Positions 14,228 through 31,828 of a DNA stretch of 58,736 nt are shown piece after piece. The notes under the pieces are model-generated. The model searched no databases and had not been told where the DNA came from. It was given only the letters and a program-made list of their open reading frames with translations. Numbering within the stretch: position 1 is the stretch's first letter; each line of letters starts with the position of its first letter. This stretch comes from an uncultured Aquificales bacterium. Lineage in GTDB: Bacteria > Thermosulfidibacterota > Thermosulfidibacteria > Thermosulfidibacterales > Thermosulfidibacteraceae. The DNA lies in contig CAYVOC010000002.1 in NCBI GenBank assembly GCA_964453345.1, positions 27,424-86,159 of the forward strand, read 5' to 3'. Made by a program: the position numbers and the translations under genes.

Positions 14228-14956
14228 ATGAGGGTGGAGAACAAGGGATTATTTTACAACCTGAATAGATACATGGATGAGCTTAACAGAACCTCCAGAA
14301 AAATATCAACCGGAAGGGCGATAAACACGGCCAGTGACAACCCCGCAACGGCCGCAATAGCCGAAAAGATGGATGCGATTATAAGGGAACTGCTCAAAAG
14401 AGAAGGCAACGTTCAGGACATGGTGAACATGATGCAAACCGCAGAGGGAGGGTTGTCAAACATAGGAGAGATACTTCAGAGAATGAGGGAGCTTGCGGTT
14501 CAGGCGTCCAACGGGACCCTCACCCAGGAGGACAGGAACCAGATCCAGGCGGAATTTGAACAGCTCAAAGAAGAGCTTAACAGAATCTCCAGTAACACCC
14601 GATTCAACAACAAACCCCTGCTTGATGTGAACACCGAAAAACTGGATCTTGACAAGCTGGATCTGACCAATCCCGCACAGGCCGAAAAAGCCATCAGCAG
14701 GCTTGACAGCGCCATAAAAACCATCTCCTCTGACAGGGGCAACCTCGGAGCCATCATAAACGGATACAGGGCAAGGCTTTCGAACTACCAGGTGCAGAGG
14801 GAAAACACCACGGCATCCTACTCAAGGATAATGGACACCGACATGGCCGAGGCCATCACCAAATACAATCAGTTCCAGACCCTTTCACAGATCAGCCTGC
14901 AGACTATAAGGAAGATGAATCAGCTGCTGAAGATGAAACTGAACCTGCTGACATAG
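14228..14956 (+). CDS. Short flagellin-family protein (D0/D1 only)
   Basis: [51 protein letters not shown]; 242 aa. Confidence 0.9.
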
Positions 14957-24685: not shown

Positions 24686-25234
24686 ATGAAGGAGAAGCTC
24701 GCAGAAATAGGAAGGGTTCTGTGGGAGGAGGGACTTGTCACCTCCCACGGTGGAAACCTTTCTGTCAGAACATCCCCAAGACAAATTCTGATAACAAAAA
24801 CAGGAACAAAACTGGGCTTTCTCAAGCCCGACGATTTCTTAAAAGTTCCCATACCGTCCAGCAAGGAAGAGTTTCCGGAGGCCTCTTCAGAACTGATAGT
24901 CCACTCTGAAATATACATGCAGACAGATCACAAAGCCGTGGTTCACGCCCATCCACCCCACACTGTGGCCCTATCCTTTTTGCAGGAAAAGATCATTCCT
25001 CCCGACACAGAAGGCAGACTCACCTACAAGGAGTGTCCGGTGATAGAGGTCAAAAGACCCCACGCCTCCGAAGAACTCGCCGAAGCGGTTGCAAGGGCTT
25101 TGAGAACGAACAGAATAGTCTGCGTAAAAGGCCACGGCACCTTCGCCGCAGGCCAAAACGTGGAAGAGGCCCTGTTCTTCACATCCGCGGTGGAGTTTTC
25201 AGCAAGACTCATATTTTTGCTGAAGCAGCTTTAA
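24686..25234 (+). CDS. Class II aldolase/adducin family protein
   Basis: GGNLSVR, ASSELIVH, VVHAHPP, KGHG-F--G. Confidence 0.92.
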   Translation: MKEKLAEIGRVLWEEGLVTSHGGNLSVRTSPRQILITKTGTKLGFLKPDDFLKVPIPSSKEEFPEASSELIVHSEIYMQTDHKAVVHAHPPHTVALSFLQEKIIPPDTEGRLTYKECPVIEVKRPHASEELAEAVARALRTNRIVCVKGHGTFAAGQNVEEALFFTSAVEFSARLIFLLKQL

Positions 25235-26380
25235 ATATCCCCAAACTCCATCTATCAAAAGCCTCTCAGAAGCATCAAAATCCTCAAAAAGCTTTCTTTG
25301 CTTAGCAGTCATATCCTGTCCATATTTGGCCTCCACAAGAACCCTATCCTCGGTGAAAAAGTCTATCTCCACCCCATCCTTGTAAACATAGCAAGGTTTT
25401 TTTTCCTTTATCTCCAAAAACACCAGATTCTCAAAAACCGCCCCCTTATCCCTAAAACCCGTTATGAGATTTCTGATACCAACATCGCCCGAGTATACTT
25501 TTTTGGGACTCTTCAACCTCTCATTCAACTTTCCGCATCTCTCAATGGTGTAAACGAGAAAGGCCTCTTCGAAGAATCCAACAAATCTTCTGGCCGTATC
25601 GACACTTATACCCAGAACCTTAGCAATGCGATTGTAACTCAACTGTTTGCCGGATCTCTCCATAAGCAGTCTGAAGACATCTCTCAGTAGCAACTTATCC
25701 CTCACATTATGCACACCAACGATATCCTTATAAAGGATATCATCCACAAGCTGCTTTATATACTCGGGATCTCCAGTTAAGACATACTCAGGGATTCCAC
25801 CCGTTTCCATATATTCTTCAAAATACCCTTCAAGCAGATGGTAATCATAGCTCTTCACCCTGATTCCCTTAAAAGAGAGATACTCCAGAAAATCGAGGGG
25901 CATCACCTCTATAACTCTCTCCCTTCCCGTCAAAAACGACTTTCCGAGCCTGAGAATAGAGGAAGAGGACGAAGAGGCAAAAACCTTCACATTATACAAA
26001 TCGTAAAGATTCTTAAGCTGCACGGCAAAATTCTCTTTGTAAGCAACCTCATCTAAAAACAGATAGGATTTTTCGGAAAAGGAAATCTTCTGTATCTTCA
26101 TAAACTCTTCCACAATATCAATTATGGACATCCCCTCAATCCCGTAAAAATCCAGCGATACATAGAACACTCTTCCTGGAGCAATACCAGAATCCAACAG
26201 CTCCTTAATCAGCATTTTCATGATGGTGGTTTTACCAGAACGGCGGAGCCCAGTTATATAAACCACATCCTTAGTATTCAACAACCGCTTGAGTCTTTTG
26301 AGATACCTCTCCCTCACTATGAAGCTGAAAGGGAAATCACCATCCCACCACGGGTTGAACCTATACAGGAAGCTTAACAT
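25199..26380 (-). CDS. AAA+ ATPase (AAA_14) with DUF4143-type wHTH/nuclease-like C-terminus
   Basis: Walker A GLRRSGKT, Walker B YLFLDEV, GGIPE, HTH-like SYNRIAKVLGISVDTARR, SPKKVY--D-G, FENLV, EIDF...VEAK. Confidence 0.88.
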   Translation of the reverse strand: MLSFLYRFNPWWDGDFPFSFIVRERYLKRLKRLLNTKDVVYITGLRRSGKTTIMKMLIKELLDSGIAPGRVFYVSLDFYGIEGMSIIDIVEEFMKIQKISFSEKSYLFLDEVAYKENFAVQLKNLYDLYNVKVFASSSSSSILRLGKSFLTGRERVIEVMPLDFLEYLSFKGIRVKSYDYHLLEGYFEEYMETGGIPEYVLTGDPEYIKQLVDDILYKDIVGVHNVRDKLLLRDVFRLLMERSGKQLSYNRIAKVLGISVDTARRFVGFFEEAFLVYTIERCGKLNERLKSPKKVYSGDVGIRNLITGFRDKGAVFENLVFLEIKEKKPCYVYKDGVEIDFFTEDRVLVEAKYGQDMTAKQRKLFEDFDASERLLIDGVWGYLKLLQQKYESC

Positions 26381-26435: not shown

Positions 26436-27119
26436 TCAAGCCTTGGGCTGAGAGGCCTTTCTGAAGCGGTTTACCTCAATGTGGGCCCGTCTTGTGGGTT
26501 CCGGTAATCTATAGCCCCTGCAACAGTTCGTCACAAACCTTACGGCAAACTCAAGGGATACCCTGTGCCCTACAGAAACGAACACAGGTTTAACCTTCCT
26601 TTTGGTTCTGAGTATCGCCCCGACTGTTTCGCCCTTATAGATCAGGGGTTCCCAGCTACCTGGATCCTCGGGCGGCTCTCTGTATTCCCCAACAAGTATG
26701 CTTTTTGCCACACCTATTGCCGGCTTGTCGTATATGACGCCTATGTGGGATGCGATGCCAAATCCCCTGGGATGGGCAATACCCTGTCCGTCAACCATCA
26801 AAAGATCCGGCTCCCTCTTCAACCCCTCAAGAGCCTTCATTATCACAGGCGTCTCCCTAAAGGACAGAAGCCCTGGAATATAGGGCATCGAAATTCTGAA
26901 GGATGCCGTGCTCACCTCCACCACCCTTAGGGCGGGATAATCCATCACAACAACGGCGGCGAACCCAACGTCCGACCCCTTGGAAACGGAAACATCTATG
27001 CCCGCCACAAGTCTGACTGCAGGCTCCCCAAAAGGGACAACCCTTGAGGAAAGCTCCCTCTGAAGCGCCATGGCATCGGATGGAGCCAGATCCCAGGGAT
27101 GCTGGACGAGGGGTCTCAA
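26436..27119 (-). CDS. nfi: Endonuclease V (deoxyinosine 3' endonuclease)
   Basis: [48 protein letters not shown]. Confidence 0.97.
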
Positions 27120-28540
27120 ACCCTTACCTCCTCCACCTCCCCGATAAGATGCCCGTATTTTTTCAAAATAGGCTCAACCTCCACCTCCACAAACTCCACA
27201 ACCTGAGAAGGTGCCCTTCCAATGAATCTGGACGGATTCATAAGCTTCGAAATATCCTCTTCGGTGAGTCCGAAGTCAGGATCCTCCGCTATCCTCTCAA
27301 GAAGCCTGGGTTTCTCTCCCTCCTTTTCCCTTTGGGCCTCCTCAAAGGCATAGCGCCTTATCTTCTCGTGGAGAAGCTGCCTGTCCCCTCCCCTTTTTAC
27401 GGCCTCCATGAGTATCTCCTCAACCGCAACAAAGGGGAGCTTCTCCTTAAGCCTTCTCTCTATAACCCTGGGATGGACCACCAGCCCCTTCACCACATTG
27501 ATTGCGAGTATCAGAATGGCATCGGTGGCCATAAAGGCCTCAGGTATAGTGACCCTCCTGATTGCAGAATCATCCAGGGTTCTTTCCATCCACTGTAGAG
27601 ACGGAGTATACTCAAAGGTTTCTAAATAGGCTATCACAAGCCTGGCTATAGAGCAGATCCTCTCGCACTTCATGGGATTGCGCTTATAGGGCATGGCGGA
27701 CGATCCCACCTGCCTTTTACCGAAGGGCTCCTCGAGCTCCCCGAAGGACATAAGTATCCTTATATCCGTGGCCATCTTATGGCAGGACTGGGCGATTCCT
27801 GAAAGCACCTGGGCGACCATGTAATCCTGCTTTCTGGTGTAGGTCTGCCCGGTTATCAAAAACCTTCTCTCAAAGCCGAACTTGGCGGCAACAAGCTCAT
27901 CAAGCCTTCTGACCTTCTCCTCATCCCCGTTAAACAGCTTCATAAAGCTGTCCTGGGTGCCCGTGGTCCCCTTGACCCCCCTGAACTTCAGATTCTCCAT
28001 GGCAAACTCTAAGGCCTTCAGATCCTCCACAAACTCCTGAAGCCAGAGGGCGGCCCTCTTTCCTACAGTGGTGGGCTGGGCGAACTGAAGATGGGTATAG
28101 CCCAAGCAGGGAAGATCCCTGTATTTCAGGGCAAAGTCCTTCAGAGCAGCGATGAGATTGACCAGCCTCTTCAACACTATTCTCAAAGCATCCCTTATAA
28201 TAATTACATCGGCATTATCCGTGACATAGCAGCTTGTGGCTCCCAGATGTATTATGGGTCTGGCCTTCGGGCACTGCTCTCCAAAGGCGTGTATGTGGGC
28301 CATAACATCGTGCTTCAGCTCCCTCTCAAGCTCCTTTGCCCTATCAAGGTTGAGGTTATCCACGTTTGCGCGCATCTCCTCTATCTGCTCTTCAGTAATG
28401 GGCAACCCCAGCTCCCTTTCGGCCTCCGCAAGAGCCACCCACAGTTGCCTCCAGATCTTGAACCTCCTTTCGGTCGCAAAAACGGAAAGCATCTCAGAGG
28501 AAGCGTATCTTTCCACAAGGGGATGCTCAAACATCTCCAC
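27116..28540 (-). CDS. purB: Adenylosuccinate lyase
   Basis: [32 protein letters not shown]. Confidence 0.97.
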
Positions 28541-29102
28541 CTCCCACCGGCAACCTGCTCAGGATAAGCTCCACAACCCTCTCAAAGGGTTCCACCACCC
28601 CCACCCCTTTGTGGGCAACAGACTCAAAGCTGTCAACACCCCCCAAATTCAATTTCTCCTCCAGCACCTCCACAGGGAGGGCATCCTCAAGATCCCTCTT
28701 GTTGTATTGAAAAACCAAAGGCATGTAGTTCAGATCCAGCCCCACCTCCCTGCAAAAGACCTCGAGTTCCTTCAAGGTCAAAAGGTTATCCTCAAGTCTT
28801 TTGGCAGAGGAATCAGCAACAAAGACTATGCCATCCGCCCCTCTAAGAACGAGCTTCTTTGTGGAGGCATACACCACCTGGCCGGCCACAGTGTAGGCGG
28901 AAATCAAAACCCTCTTTCCATTCATCCTTTTCTCAACGGGCAGATAGTCGAAAAAGACGGTCCTTCCAGAGGTCTCCCTCAGCTTCACAGGTAGAGACCC
29001 GCCCAGGGACTCCGCAATCTTCTCTAAGGTTGTGGTCTTCCCCGAACCACCCGGACCGTAATACACAACCTTTATCCGCACAGCATCAGGGGTTACTATC
29101 AT
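28527..29102 (-). CDS. MglA-family small Ras-like GTPase
   Basis: [14 protein letters not shown] (G1), RTVFFD (G2 with intrinsic Arg), TVAGQ (G3), [15 protein letters not shown] (G4). Confidence 0.93.
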
Positions 29103-29881
29103 CTTCTCTTCCTTAACCTGTCTATAGCAGCCTTAAGAGACACCCTCATCCTCTCAAGGGCTTCAGCCAGCAGATCTATATCGTCCCCATCCTCCACAAA
29201 CTCTATCTCAACATCAAGATCGCCAAGGGAGATGGCCTCGGCCTTATCCCTCAAATACTCAAGCCTATCGGCGATATCCTTCCCCACAACCGTTATCAGC
29301 ACCACCGCAATCAATATAACAAGCAGGGAAACGCCCGTGGTCATAAAGACAAGCTTTTTCTGAGTTTTTATAACAGTCTCAAAGGCGGTGGGCATAACCA
29401 CAAATATGTGAGCAAGCCTGCCCCCGTAAACCTTCCTATGAAGTATAAAGACCTTGGAATAGGAGAGCCCTTTAAAGCTGACGCTATCAGGCAGGCTATA
29501 CAGTATAAGATGCTCGTTGCCGGGTTGATCCATAAGCCTTTTAAACTCAGGCTCAAGCACCTTCAGCGCCCTCTCGTTTTTGGGCGCATAGGCCGCAAGG
29601 GTCTTATCCCCCCTGTAAACAACATCCATCAGTATGGAAAAGGGCCTTGAAAAGGATGAAACAATTTTATCAATTGCGGCAATGTCGTTGGCCAAAAGCG
29701 GTTCCTTAAGAGAGGTCTCCAAGCTCTCCACCATATTCCTTCCGCTGTCCTGGATCTGCCGGGTAAGGACCTTGGTGTGAAAGAGCACCGCCAGAAGCCC
29801 TATCACAAAGGAAACAACAAAGACTGAGCCAACGCTTATCAAGATCAGCTTCTTCCTTATCCTCATCCTTCTCAAAAGCAT
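29099..29881 (-). CDS. Two-TM membrane receptor ending in a HAMP domain, with no output domain
   Basis: TM1, ~140-aa extracytoplasmic domain, TM2, HAMP ([10 protein letters not shown]...[17 protein letters not shown]), then stop. Confidence 0.85.
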
Positions 29882-29898
29882 TTCATCCCTCCAGCATC

Positions 29899-30438
29899 TT
29901 ACTCAGAAAGTCCTTCTTCTATCTCCTTTTTCAACAGGCTGATTATATCATCAAGCGACTCCCTTTCAGGGGGTCTATCCGCCTTCTCCACAACCTCCTC
30001 AGGAACCTTCCCGGACAGAAAATCTCCCACGGCCCGTGAAACATCCATACTCTCCACAATAGGAAGGATCTTTTTTCTAAACTGGGAAACGTGCAATTTT
30101 AACACCCCAAAGCGGACCTCGTCCGTGGGGTAAAGCACAAAGGCAAAGGTGTCCCCCGAAACCTTAAAGGCGTAAACCGAGACCCCTGAACCCTCCATAA
30201 GCACAGTATTCGCCCCAGAAAGACCGGAAAGGGAAAAGAGTTCCTGAACCGCAGAAAAGATACCGGCCATAAGAGCCGCCATTGCATCAACCGGAAGCTT
30301 TCTGCTGGAGGAGAACCCCACTATCTGTCCCGAAATATGGGCGAGAACCACCAAGGAGGCACCGGACTTGTTCCTGAAATCCATAAGAAGCCTCTTCAAC
30401 TGTCCCATCTGCTCCTCTGAAAGGCCCACAACCTCCAT
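29899..30438 (-). CDS. MglB-like roadblock/LC7 protein
   Basis: [31 protein letters not shown]-terminal acidic helix LDDIISLL; in an operon with the MglA GTPase. Confidence 0.85.
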
Positions 30439-30439
30439 C

Positions 30440-31396
30440 TCACTCCCCCACAAGGGCGTCAAACAGCTCGCTCACAGCCTCGCTATCCTTAACCAGCCTG
30501 GCCGCAGAAGCCGAGGCCAGCTTCCTGACTTCATCCGGAATCTGAGAAGCTATCTCCGTTAGCAGAGCGGCCATACCCTCTATAAGCCTATCCGTATCAA
30601 TCCCCTCCTCTATAATGATCCTGCCATCCCTGAAATAAACATCGGGATCAAAGGGATCGAGGAAGGGATAATCCTCAGCAAGCTTCAAAGCGGCCCTTTT
30701 GAATCCCCTCTCACCAATGTGGGGCCATATCTCCGGGAGAATGGCGTTAAAGAACTCCTTCACCGCCCCAACCACATCAGCGGTGGTCTTTGCCGACTCC
30801 ATATCCTCAGCCTCAAATTTTCTGTCAAAAACCGCCTCTATCAAGGAAAAAGAGGCGGTTTCAGAGCTGTTCAATTGATGCATCATCTCCATGGCATCAT
30901 CGCCGGCAAGGGTCGCTTCAGGATCTTCATAGAGAAAATCAAAGGGCTCACCCGAAAAGAAAAAGGCCATAAAAGTAGCCCCCTTCTTCTCATCCTCAAC
31001 CAGAAGCACACCTGTAAACTCTTTTTTTGAGAGGTGCTCCATAAGCCTTTCGGTGTCCACTATCCCAAAGGGAACATTACTGAACAGAGGCTCTGCCGAA
31101 TACACAGCGGAAATCACACTCAGAAGCTCCGGATCCAGTGAATATACACTTATCAGGCCTGACCCATCCGAAATTCCTCTCTTTATAAGTTCAGACAACG
31201 CATCCCTGCCACCGCTCCCCCTATGAACCCCAACCACCCTTCCCTTCTCAAGGAAGATAACCCCCTCATCATCCTCAAAATCGAGCTTCACATAACCGCT
31301 GAATCCCTCCTCGGACAGTTCCTCAAGAAGGCTATCCAGCTTAACCACCTTGGTTTTAAGGTTGGTATAGACCGGCTTACCCCTTGGAAGCACCAT
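30440..31396 (-). CDS. Hypothetical protein with two tandem DUF2226/DUF4388-like domains
   Basis: Internal repeat LLEELSEEGFSGYVKL...IFLEKG / LMEHLSKKEFTGVLLV...FFFSG; ATG 31396 behind GGGGAGG. Confidence 0.7.
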   Translation of the reverse strand: MVLPRGKPVYTNLKTKVVKLDSLLEELSEEGFSGYVKLDFEDDEGVIFLEKGRVVGVHRGSGGRDALSELIKRGISDGSGLISVYSLDPELLSVISAVYSAEPLFSNVPFGIVDTERLMEHLSKKEFTGVLLVEDEKKGATFMAFFFSGEPFDFLYEDPEATLAGDDAMEMMHQLNSSETASFSLIEAVFDRKFEAEDMESAKTTADVVGAVKEFFNAILPEIWPHIGERGFKRAALKLAEDYPFLDPFDPDVYFRDGRIIIEEGIDTDRLIEGMAALLTEIASQIPDEVRKLASASAARLVKDSEAVSELFDALVGE

Positions 31397-31505
31397 CGCA
31401 GCCCTCCCCAAAGGCTTCCTTCAAAAATTAGCAAAAAGGGAAAGCCACAAAAAGTCAACAGAAAAACGCCTTGCCGAAATCCTAAAAGTAGAATACAAAG
31501 CAGGT

Positions 31506-31775
31506 ATGAAAGAGAAAAAGAACACCCCTGAGTTCTTCTGGAAGAGCCTCAAAGATCTGCTTGTTGAACACACAGGAATCATAGCAGATCTCCTTATAGA
31601 AGAGGCACTCCTTGAGATGAACAAAAGCTCGGTGGAGGAGATAACCATACCCGAGGTGCCGGTATTCCTTGACAGGCTCTACAGAGAGCTTGAAAAGATC
31701 ATGTCTCCGGCCTTTCTGGAGAGATTCAAGGAGAAAACCATAAAACTATTCAACGAAACCTTCACATCCCTTTAA
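31506..31775 (+). CDS. Small helical hypothetical protein divergent from the Mgl module
   Basis: 89 aa; amphipathic helices LKDLLVEHTGIIADLLIEEAL / VFLDRLYRELEKIM; fills the intergenic gap. Confidence 0.7.
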   Translation: MKEKKNTPEFFWKSLKDLLVEHTGIIADLLIEEALLEMNKSSVEEITIPEVPVFLDRLYRELEKIMSPAFLERFKEKTIKLFNETFTSL

Positions 31776-31782
31776 AAGAAAT

Positions 31783-31812
31783 AAAAAAGCCCCGGCGCAA
31801 AAGCACCGGGGC
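31783..31812 (-). terminator. Intrinsic terminator after hppA
   Basis: Stem GCCCCGG/CCGGGGC (31789-31812) followed by T6 on the minus strand. Confidence 0.8.
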
Positions 31813-31828
31813 CTATTCCTTTCCAGAA

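Follow-up and report, generated by a model that had tools for sequence, protein, structure and literature searches.

The 58,736-nucleotide stretch of contig CAYVOC010000002.1 analysed here (the window; assembly GCA_964453345.1, an uncultured Aquificales bacterium which GTDB places in the Thermosulfidibacterota) carries a cluster of four minus-strand genes. These specify a PATAN-family protein, an MglB-type roadblock protein, a membrane receptor whose cytoplasmic part is a HAMP domain, and a small GTPase resembling MglA. Comparison with other genomes shows that the cluster represents a conserved sensor-coupled MglA module found in several phyla; the mechanism by which it operates we infer. We give slightly better than even chances to the explanation that the four genes constitute a single signalling module in which the HAMP sensor acts through the PATAN protein and MglB on MglA. 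The coordinates below refer to the window, and lengths are in amino acids (aa); the open reading frames (ORFs) are those of the ORF list.

30440..31396, minus strand: PATAN-family protein, 318 aa (ORF 30440-31411, ATG at 31396)
29899..30438, minus strand: MglB-type roadblock protein, 179 aa (ORF 29899-30462, ATG at 30438)
29099..29881, minus strand: HAMP-terminal receptor, 260 aa (from the ORF list)
28527..29102, minus strand: MglA small GTPase, Group 1 by its motifs, 191 aa (from the ORF list)

The four co-directional ORFs are tightly packed, and on re-reading their junctions proved to be those given in an earlier annotation made from the letters alone (the sequence-only reading). The PATAN and roadblock genes are separated by a single nucleotide (TGA-G-ATG), the roadblock and receptor genes by 17 nucleotides, while the receptor TGA and the GTPase ATG overlap as ATGA. 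A GGAGG-like motif lies upstream of all four starts, and the ATG starts picked in that reading are backed by ortholog alignments. We count the tight packing, with its overlapping stop and start, in favour of one signalling module.

The receptor consists of a first transmembrane (TM) segment (residues 12-34), an extracytoplasmic domain (approximately 35-176), a second TM segment (177-203) and a HAMP domain (204-257), after which only three residues follow. The two hydrophobic segments, 12-34 and 177-203, are evident from hydropathy, and Pfam HAMP matches residues 203-250 with 33.3 bits against a cut-off of 25. Pfam and NCBIfam scans of the protein revealed no other cytoplasmic domain (kinase, HisKA/HATPase_c, MCPsignal or cyclase), which bears out the description of a two-TM receptor with nothing but HAMP in the cytoplasm. 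It is the sole HAMP match in the window genome which lies in a short frame (267 aa).

No Pfam sensor family matches the extracytoplasmic domain of the window receptor. An AlphaFold2 model (pLDDT 81.5) places an alpha/beta domain between the TM helices, and Foldseek matched it to Cache/PDC sensors, among them 7dud_A, the extracellular domain of WalK [E=1.9e-6, TMt 0.66], and 4ywz_A [E=5.7e-6, TMt 0.67]. As modelled, the fold is single-Cache/PDC-like, that is, a PAS-like alpha/beta fold, and the domain presumably binds a ligand. Relatives carry the corresponding Pfam family: sCache_3_2 was found in short family members recovered by the tail search described below (P0042, 45.4 bits; P0047, 36.1 bits), and a Bacteroidota relative which aligns with the receptor (L037) matches it weakly, at 25.5 bits against a cut-off of 28.4.

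The HAMP-terminal form is conserved. Orthologs in nine other genomes, all of the window's phylum, occupy frames of 255-270 aa at 33-76% identity; each of the 14 aligned orthologs stops 0-3 residues past the sequence RLRKR, and the tail itself (ERMRxSLKAAIxRL) is nearly invariant, its conserved residues including E243, R246, K250 and R255. A scan of 185,579 species genomes with two tail motifs yielded 244 stretches, among which tblastn recognized 89 relatives, and 80 loci were kept. In 79 of these 80 the ORF stops no more than five residues past the HAMP end, the remaining one being a fragment. When 1.84 billion cluster representatives were searched with a profile built from 76 tails, 72,826 proteins matched at E<=1e-3, 2,509 at E<=1e-10 (poly-HAMP proteins included) and 27 at E<=1e-30. 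Among the 150 matches listed, 96 have a single HAMP match and, as read off the table, in 94 of these it stops no more than five residues short of the C-terminus. The other two are a 94-aa piece and the metagenome protein P0083, to which we return below. The profile's top ranks (the top 30 rows) are held by poly-HAMP proteins with up to 18 matched stretches and as many as 2,344 aa; the receptor's HAMP subtype is also used in tandem arrays. One member of the family (P0056) comes from Chloracidobacterium thermophilum, a culturable species.

Upstream of this constant tail the sensor domains vary. They include 4HB_MCP/TarH, sCache_3_3, sCache_3_2 and dCache_2, and they differ between phyla. Varied sensors joined to a constant tail form a pattern typical of receptors which share one output.

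The window's phylum is represented by 18 genomes in the collection, among them the window's own (G000). The receptor is present in ten (G000 and nine others), and eight of these ten also possess MglA at E<=1e-70, the two without it being 88% and 77% complete. Conversely, seven of the eight genomes without a receptor are also without MglA at this threshold; the eighth, G004, which belongs to the same family, has a divergent MglA (E=5e-38). The order PATAN-roadblock-receptor-MglA is kept in three relatives (G002, G003 and G008) and, with one extra gene, in G009. Two loci (G012 and G016) add a canonical DUF4388 gene, and in G005, G011 and G013 the locus is cut by contig ends. Synteny of the HAMP gene with mglA and mglB, on which the sequence-only reading depended, was thus encountered in eight of the ten receptor genomes of the phylum, and was found again in 43 of 70 loci in other phyla.

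Periplasmic binding-protein genes (Peripla_BP_6 or Phosphonate-bd) stand beside the receptor or MglA in the loci of six of the nine relatives. They are situated between the receptor gene and mglA or just past mglA, and L009 retains only a 129-aa remnant. This suggests binding-protein-mediated sensing in the relatives. The periplasmic solute-binding protein genes are:

Locus L010, 2281-3411
Locus L011, 610-1479
Locus L012, 921-1706
Locus L007, 3-638
Locus L027, 1494-3763

Neighbours of the 80 loci were identified within a reach of 8 kb, using local hidden Markov models made from orthologs together with Pfam-verified DUF4388 and roadblock proteins, and the loci were grouped by record label. Seventy loci lie outside the phylum; a PATAN-type gene was recognized in 64 of them, a roadblock-type gene in 66 and MglA in 43, and all three families occur together in 43:

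Chloroflexota: 30 loci, all three families in 25
Bacteroidota: 10 loci, all three in 9
Thermodesulfobacteriota-like: 7 loci, all three in 5
Pseudomonadota-labelled: 2 loci, all three in 2
Acidobacteriota: 13 loci, all three in 0
'Clostridia'-labelled: 4 loci, all three in 0
Deinococcales: 1 locus, all three in 0
Unclassified: 3 loci, all three in 2

Over the full set, MglA lies on the receptor's strand and within approximately 4 kb of it in every one of the 51 loci (of 80) which hold MglA; an MglB-like gene and MglA occur together in 50. None of the three families was detected in four loci, three of which are cut by a contig end near the gene. All 13 acidobacterial loci have PATAN-type and roadblock-like genes beside the receptor.

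The clusters of other phyla are larger and differently ordered, the window holding the minimal four-gene version. In an Anaerolineales locus the genes run REC-PATAN regulator, PATAN-334, small roadblock-like protein, DUF4388-264, receptor, MglB, MglA and roadblock, and the Bacteroidota loci read DUF4388, roadblock-like, DUF4388, receptor, MglB and MglA. In the Thermodesulfobacteriota-like loci the order is roadblock-like, receptor, REC-PATAN, PATAN-355, MglB and MglA, followed by a CheW-domain protein. Such differences in gene order from phylum to phylum favour selection over the inheritance of a single arrangement. The window genome (1.5 Mb) contains two DUF4388 matches and one Robl_LC7 match, and judging from this low copy number the chance expectation for such families in a 16-kb interval would be a few per cent. 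One example of the CheW-domain proteins (L043, 11556-12896) is 446 aa long, carries its CheW-like domain at the C-terminus and follows mglA in a cluster which has REC-PATAN regulators; the CheW-like and REC-PATAN genes of these loci hint at cross-talk with Che-type systems.

The association is mainly one-way. As a comparison set we took 20 MglA loci which had not been picked via HAMP, from 11 genomes and with up to 9 kb on each side; 12 of them have an MglB-like gene and ten a PATAN/DUF4388 gene. The receptor is nearly always accompanied by PATAN and roadblock genes and usually by MglA, while most MglA systems are without the receptor.

The GTPase is readily identified. In phmmer searches of the PDB it matched M. 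xanthus (Myxococcus xanthus) MglA [5ymx_A, E=1.9e-42, residues 8-190] and Thermus thermophilus MglA [3t12_A, E=3.7e-38]. Its motifs are a P-loop GPGGSGKT, GRTVFFD in G2 (R47-T48), TVAGQ in G3 and NKRD in G4, as had been noted from the sequence at the outset, and R47, T48, T71, G74, Q75, N134, K135 and D137 are invariant in 26 aligned cluster MglAs. The alanine of TVAGQ, in place of the proline of TVPGQ, is confined to the window's genus (3 of the 26 sequences). The hallmarks of Group-1 MglA are an arginine adjoining the G2 threonine and T-x-x-G-Q in G3 (Wuichet and Sogaard-Andersen 2014, PMC4316618). By these motifs the window GTPase is a Group-1 MglA.

The window genome has a second small-GTPase cluster (contig C4, approximately 57300-59900; L103 638-3267, minus strand) which includes no HAMP gene. 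It is composed of PilM_2 (354 aa), Robl_LC7 (102 aa), DUF4388 (238 aa) and a 215-aa GTPase whose GTPGQ and NKQD motifs and Pfam ATP_bind_1/Arf matches indicate an MglA relative of the Group 2-5 type.

Taken singly the roadblock protein gives weak matches: MglB in the PDB at E=0.0095, the NCBIfam MglB model at 17.7 bits against a cut-off of 200, and no Pfam Robl_LC7 match at E<=0.01. Robl_LC7 is matched by 23 of its 25 aligned relatives, and the family profile matches M. xanthus MglB [6izw_B] at E=4.1e-40 over positions 3-152 of 163, the C-terminal region included. At the family level, then, profile similarity places it clearly with MglB, the matches of the protein itself being weak, and it is presumed to be the GTPase-activating protein (GAP) of the adjoining MglA. 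The acidic amphipathic C-terminal helix to which the sequence-only reading drew attention (LDDIISLL) is present and is retained in most relatives.

The PATAN protein matches two Pfam families, DUF4388 (31.7 bits, cut-off 25, residues 18-72) and DUF2226 (24.1 bits, cut-off 22), both on its first domain. The AlphaFold2 model (pLDDT 91.1) shows tandem alpha/beta domains at 7-98 and 103-187, a long helix at 199-239 and a C-terminal domain, so that its description as a tandem DUF2226/DUF4388-like protein is sound, the second, similar domain being apparent from the model; in an ortholog the DUF4388 match falls on this second PATAN-like domain. The C-terminal domain is marked by the motif PFLDPF (residues 244-249), of which L246, D247, P248 and F249 are invariant in a 28-sequence alignment. 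Its relatives (PATAN-336) are annotated as "hypothetical protein."

The PATAN protein has no convincingly similar solved structure, and we assign it no fold; neither a new nor a distinct fold follows from this. Foldseek against the PDB returned as its best match E 1.9e-3 with TM 0.12, the rows being sliding clamps at TM of about 0.1; a wide VIA-align search gave a best Z of 6.7 (rmsd 3.2, 83 aligned), which is within the noise range stated for that tool; and the sequence had no PDB match below E=0.2.

P0083 (195 aa) comprises, in one ORF, the HAMP tail, a linker of approximately 35 residues and then the N-terminus of PATAN-336, the similarity being lost after about 75 PATAN residues. We rejected it as a true fusion: it is represented by one sequence from one contig, and given the loss of similarity is probably a frameshifted gene pair.

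To which partner might the receptor speak? A complex was predicted in one six-chain job comprising the PATAN protein, two MglB chains and MglA 5-188; the partner consisted of receptor residues 203-260, present twice. The score was 0.38 (individual runs 0.38, 0.37 and 0.39), compared with 0.10 for the best of three controls; the runs share at least 90% of their contacts, and the partner pLDDT is at least 76. In calibration the score mark was passed by 58 of 80 solved complexes and by 2 of 110 mismatched pairs, passes at or below 0.60 comprising 7 of the 80 and both mismatches. The present score is consequently weak, a pass of this size being by that calibration more often wrong than right unless the complex is likely beforehand; moreover, the job used small unpaired alignments and, unlike the calibration, six chains.

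When the PATAN chain was replaced and MglA and MglB were retained the score fell to 0.00, and for this reason the predicted contact of the receptor is more likely to be the PATAN protein than MglA or MglB. Such a contact agrees with what is seen in the Acidobacteriota, where the receptor is retained beside PATAN and roadblock-like genes but without MglA, and with P0083, in which the receptor gene is immediately followed by that for PATAN-336. The sequence-only reading had suggested that the receptor may signal directly to the GTPase switch, without phosphorelay. The model lends weak support to the complex, at a score of 0.38, and none to a contact on MglA or MglB; the outcome of the PATAN swap and the 13 of 13 acidobacterial loci which have no MglA within 8 kb speak against direct signalling to the GTPase. 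We also considered whether the basic HAMP tail might pair with the roadblock protein's acidic C-terminal helix. We dropped this idea, as the helix is the conserved C-terminal region of MglB and swapping the PATAN chain alone removed the predicted interface.

We would picture the module as follows. A dimeric inner-membrane sensor would bind its signal by the Cache-like domain or, in the relatives, via a periplasmic binding protein. The signal would run through TM2 into the HAMP four-helix bundle, which is the whole cytoplasmic part of the sensor. Since the window's cluster has no kinase, cyclase or MCP domain, the bundle, whose basic tail (ERMRxSLKAAIxRLRKR) is conserved, would exert its effect through contact with another protein, its likeliest partner being the tandem-PATAN protein, a likely cytoplasmic adaptor of the receptor. 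The PATAN protein and the MglB-type GAP would in turn control the Group-1 MglA, either its GTP/GDP state or its membrane location. The target of MglA-GTP would be a polar machine, for which type IV pili are the most plausible candidate. Gene content, domain architectures, the constant HAMP-terminal form and the linkage across phyla are observed, whereas ligand sensing, the contact between HAMP and PATAN, the effect on MglA and the motility output are those parts of the picture which we infer.

Control of motility or polarity is suggested by what MglA and PATAN proteins do elsewhere, not by the locus itself. MglA sorts pilus ATPases in M. xanthus, and the window genome has five PilB/PilT-type ATPase matches. 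In Synechocystis, PATAN domains or regulators bind the type IV pilus motor (bioRxiv 10.1101/2021.06.11.447907). It is on these grounds that type IV pili are the preferred output.

Several observations weigh against this scheme. The cluster is flanked by purB and an H+-pyrophosphatase gene rather than by motility genes, and the window genome also has flagellin, at least eight MCP genes and CheA/CheW, that is, a full Che/MCP set. A HAMP-terminal tail protein was found in only 1 of the 20 MglA loci not picked via HAMP (L149). G004 has PATAN-312, roadblock-173 and MglA-188 genes contiguously and without a receptor (contig C4; L152, 7546-9592), and no receptor was found elsewhere in this 94% complete genome at E<=1e-12; its locus is a natural receptor-less variant. 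MglA and MglB-type genes were not found within 8 kb in any of the 13 acidobacterial or four 'Clostridia'-labelled loci, from which the receptor-PATAN core may work without MglA. Because the 80 loci were recovered via two tail motifs and include many closely related ones, the counts overstate the independent support. Finally, a Rosetta-stone search found no fused HAMP-PATAN protein and no PATAN relative longer than 605 aa (weak evidence, according to the tool), and to these must be added the weakness of the complex score.

Two alternatives merit discussion, both of which we regard as unlikely. In the first, the HAMP protein would be a membrane or polar anchor which tethers PATAN, MglB and MglA, its extracytoplasmic domain being structural. 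No ligand is known and the window's domain is without a Pfam sensor match, G004 runs PATAN-MglB-MglA with no HAMP protein, and MglA systems usually need polar landmarks, as established for M. xanthus (PMC9481161). An anchor, however, has no need of a canonical HAMP domain, nor would one expect the domain to fold, as modelled, like known Cache/PDC sensors, relatives in other phyla to bear different recognized ligand-binding modules on the same tail, or binding-protein genes to stand in six of the nine relatives' loci.

The second alternative, to which we attach the same low probability, is that the receptor signals to something encoded elsewhere, for example through heterodimers or arrays with a kinase or an MCP, or that it acts together with PATAN proteins directly on the pilus motor, MglA and MglB being merely co-regulated neighbours. 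The genome possesses MCPs and CheA/CheW, the Thermodesulfobacteriota-like clusters include a REC-PATAN regulator and a CheW-domain protein, all 13 acidobacterial loci pair the receptor with PATAN and roadblock-like genes and not with MglA, and the complex prediction did not put HAMP on MglA or MglB. Against this, 51 of the 80 loci have MglA on the receptor's strand and no more than about 4 kb away, the MglA start overlaps the receptor stop in the window's genus, and within the phylum the presence and absence of receptor and MglA go together.

The idea that the HAMP gene is a truncated relic of a histidine kinase or chemoreceptor, or adjacent by chance in a compact genome, is highly improbable and we rejected it. 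NCBIfam kinase models do match the protein weakly, over no more than its TM-HAMP part (at best 26.5 bits, cut-off 450), and sources label the relatives "HAMP domain-containing," "cache domain-containing," "histidine kinase" or "methyl-accepting chemotaxis protein." Within the phylum, however, length and stop position persist at 33-76% identity, and they do so likewise in 79 of the 80 loci taken together; the tail hardly varies, and the linkage recurs in several phyla with differing gene orders.

How does a single module running from HAMP sensor to MglA compare with known systems? The MglA/MglB switch of M. xanthus and T. thermophilus displays the same Group-1 GTPase hallmarks (R-T in G2, TxxGQ and NKxD); the window's roadblock family matches its MglB, at the E-value given above, and the roadblock and MglA genes are neighbours. 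In M. xanthus, MglA receives input from the Frz chemosensory system via response regulators such as RomR (PMC4316618; PMC3441718). These partners are not encoded beside mglA, whereas in the window and its relatives a membrane sensor gene lies between or beside the mglB/mglA pair.

The nearest sensor-coupled small-GTPase system is the actinobacterial conservon (CvnA-D), and the comparison with those of Streptomyces, made in the sequence-only reading, is apt (PMC4316618, PMC12236503). Conservons pair a membrane sensor with a roadblock protein and a GTPase, and the GTPase has been proposed as the output instead of a response regulator. The window nevertheless lacks their defining features. According to the same two papers, CvnA is a HAMP-containing histidine-kinase-like ATPase with a C-terminal LPxR motif, whereas the window receptor stops after HAMP and has no HATPase; CvnD is of Group 2 (threonine replacing the G2 arginine, GTPGQ, NxFD), whereas the window GTPase has RT, TVAGQ and NKRD, as in Group 1. 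The third conservon protein is CvnC and that of the window PATAN, and the gene order is also unlike.

A parallel had also been drawn with Af1503 of Archaeoglobus fulgidus, the prototype of HAMP-terminal membrane proteins, with a C-terminal HAMP and no output domain, which is described as non-signalling (PMC3585426). The shared architecture, HAMP without an output, stands; the likeness of sequence is that of HAMP domains in general, residues 205-257 matching the Af1503 HAMP chains at E=5.1e-4 and HtrII slightly better, at E=1.1e-4. Among the papers searched, none covers both Af1503 and MglA. PATAN/DUF4388 domains are shared with the PatA-type PATAN-REC regulators (PixG, PixE), from which the window protein differs in having no receiver domain and in possessing two PATAN-like domains and a C-terminal domain with the invariant PFLDPF.

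The MglA-MglB pair and occasional PATAN neighbours are already known, homologs of MglA/MglB frequently having PATAN genes in their vicinity (PMC4316618, citing Makarova et al. 2006; bioRxiv 10.1101/2021.06.11.447907). Searches of the main texts of freely accessible papers turned up no account in which a HAMP-terminal receptor is linked with PATAN, MglB and MglA. What appears to be new, in that we did not find it in print, is a conserved kinase-free HAMP-terminal sensor in sensor-coupled small-GTPase signalling. Such sensors have so far been seen as output-less curiosities or have been mislabelled as kinases or chemoreceptors.

As far as is known, bacterial transmembrane signalling ends in an enzyme or a chemoreceptor array, and MglA switches are thought to receive their input indirectly, via Che-like phosphorelays. 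A broader proposal, to which we give somewhat less than even chances, is that HAMP-terminal sensors are the input arm of a widespread kinase-free pathway in which HAMP docks a PATAN adaptor and so steers the roadblock protein and a Group-1 MglA. By record label the groups concerned number at least six: Aquificota-labelled, Chloroflexota, Bacteroidota, Acidobacteriota, Thermodesulfobacteriota-like and Pseudomonadota-labelled. If this were true, a HAMP bundle could itself be an output and small-GTPase polarity switches could be connected directly to sensors of the environment. This would be the prokaryotic analogue of the coupling of receptors to G proteins. The proposal would offer a testable function for a generically annotated tail family (the 2,509 matches at E<=1e-10, poly-HAMP included) and for the PATAN-336 hypothetical proteins, as well as a simple kinase-free system in which to study how partners read out HAMP conformational changes.

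Turning to the surroundings of the cluster, a consensus scan revealed the following feature after the upstream H+-pyrophosphatase gene:

31787..31814, minus strand: terminator-like hairpin of 12 pairs, 9 of them G-C, with a T-run (read from 31814 to 31787; pattern match only)

It is probably the 5' boundary of a four-gene transcription unit; the same scan found no comparable hairpin between the four genes or before purB. At its end the GTPase gene overlaps with purB (27116-28540), which may share a transcript with the four; this arrangement is restricted to the window's genus. A promoter scan gave 4 sites compared with 3.0 expected from shuffles, an uninformative result. The 430-nucleotide spacer upstream of the PATAN gene includes, on the opposite strand, an 89-aa ORF (31506-31775, plus strand) without a Pfam or NCBIfam match, which may not be a gene.

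The remaining surroundings are of a housekeeping nature (the nuo operon, secDF, rpe, endonuclease V, pth and prs). An AAA_14/DUF4143 ATPase (393 aa; 25199-26380, minus strand) with weak ATPase_2 and nSTAND3 matches is encoded between the aldolase and endonuclease V genes. Some 14 kb from the cluster, a short flagellin gene (242 aa, Flagellin_N and Flagellin_C; 14228-14956, plus strand) stands alone among the housekeeping genes.

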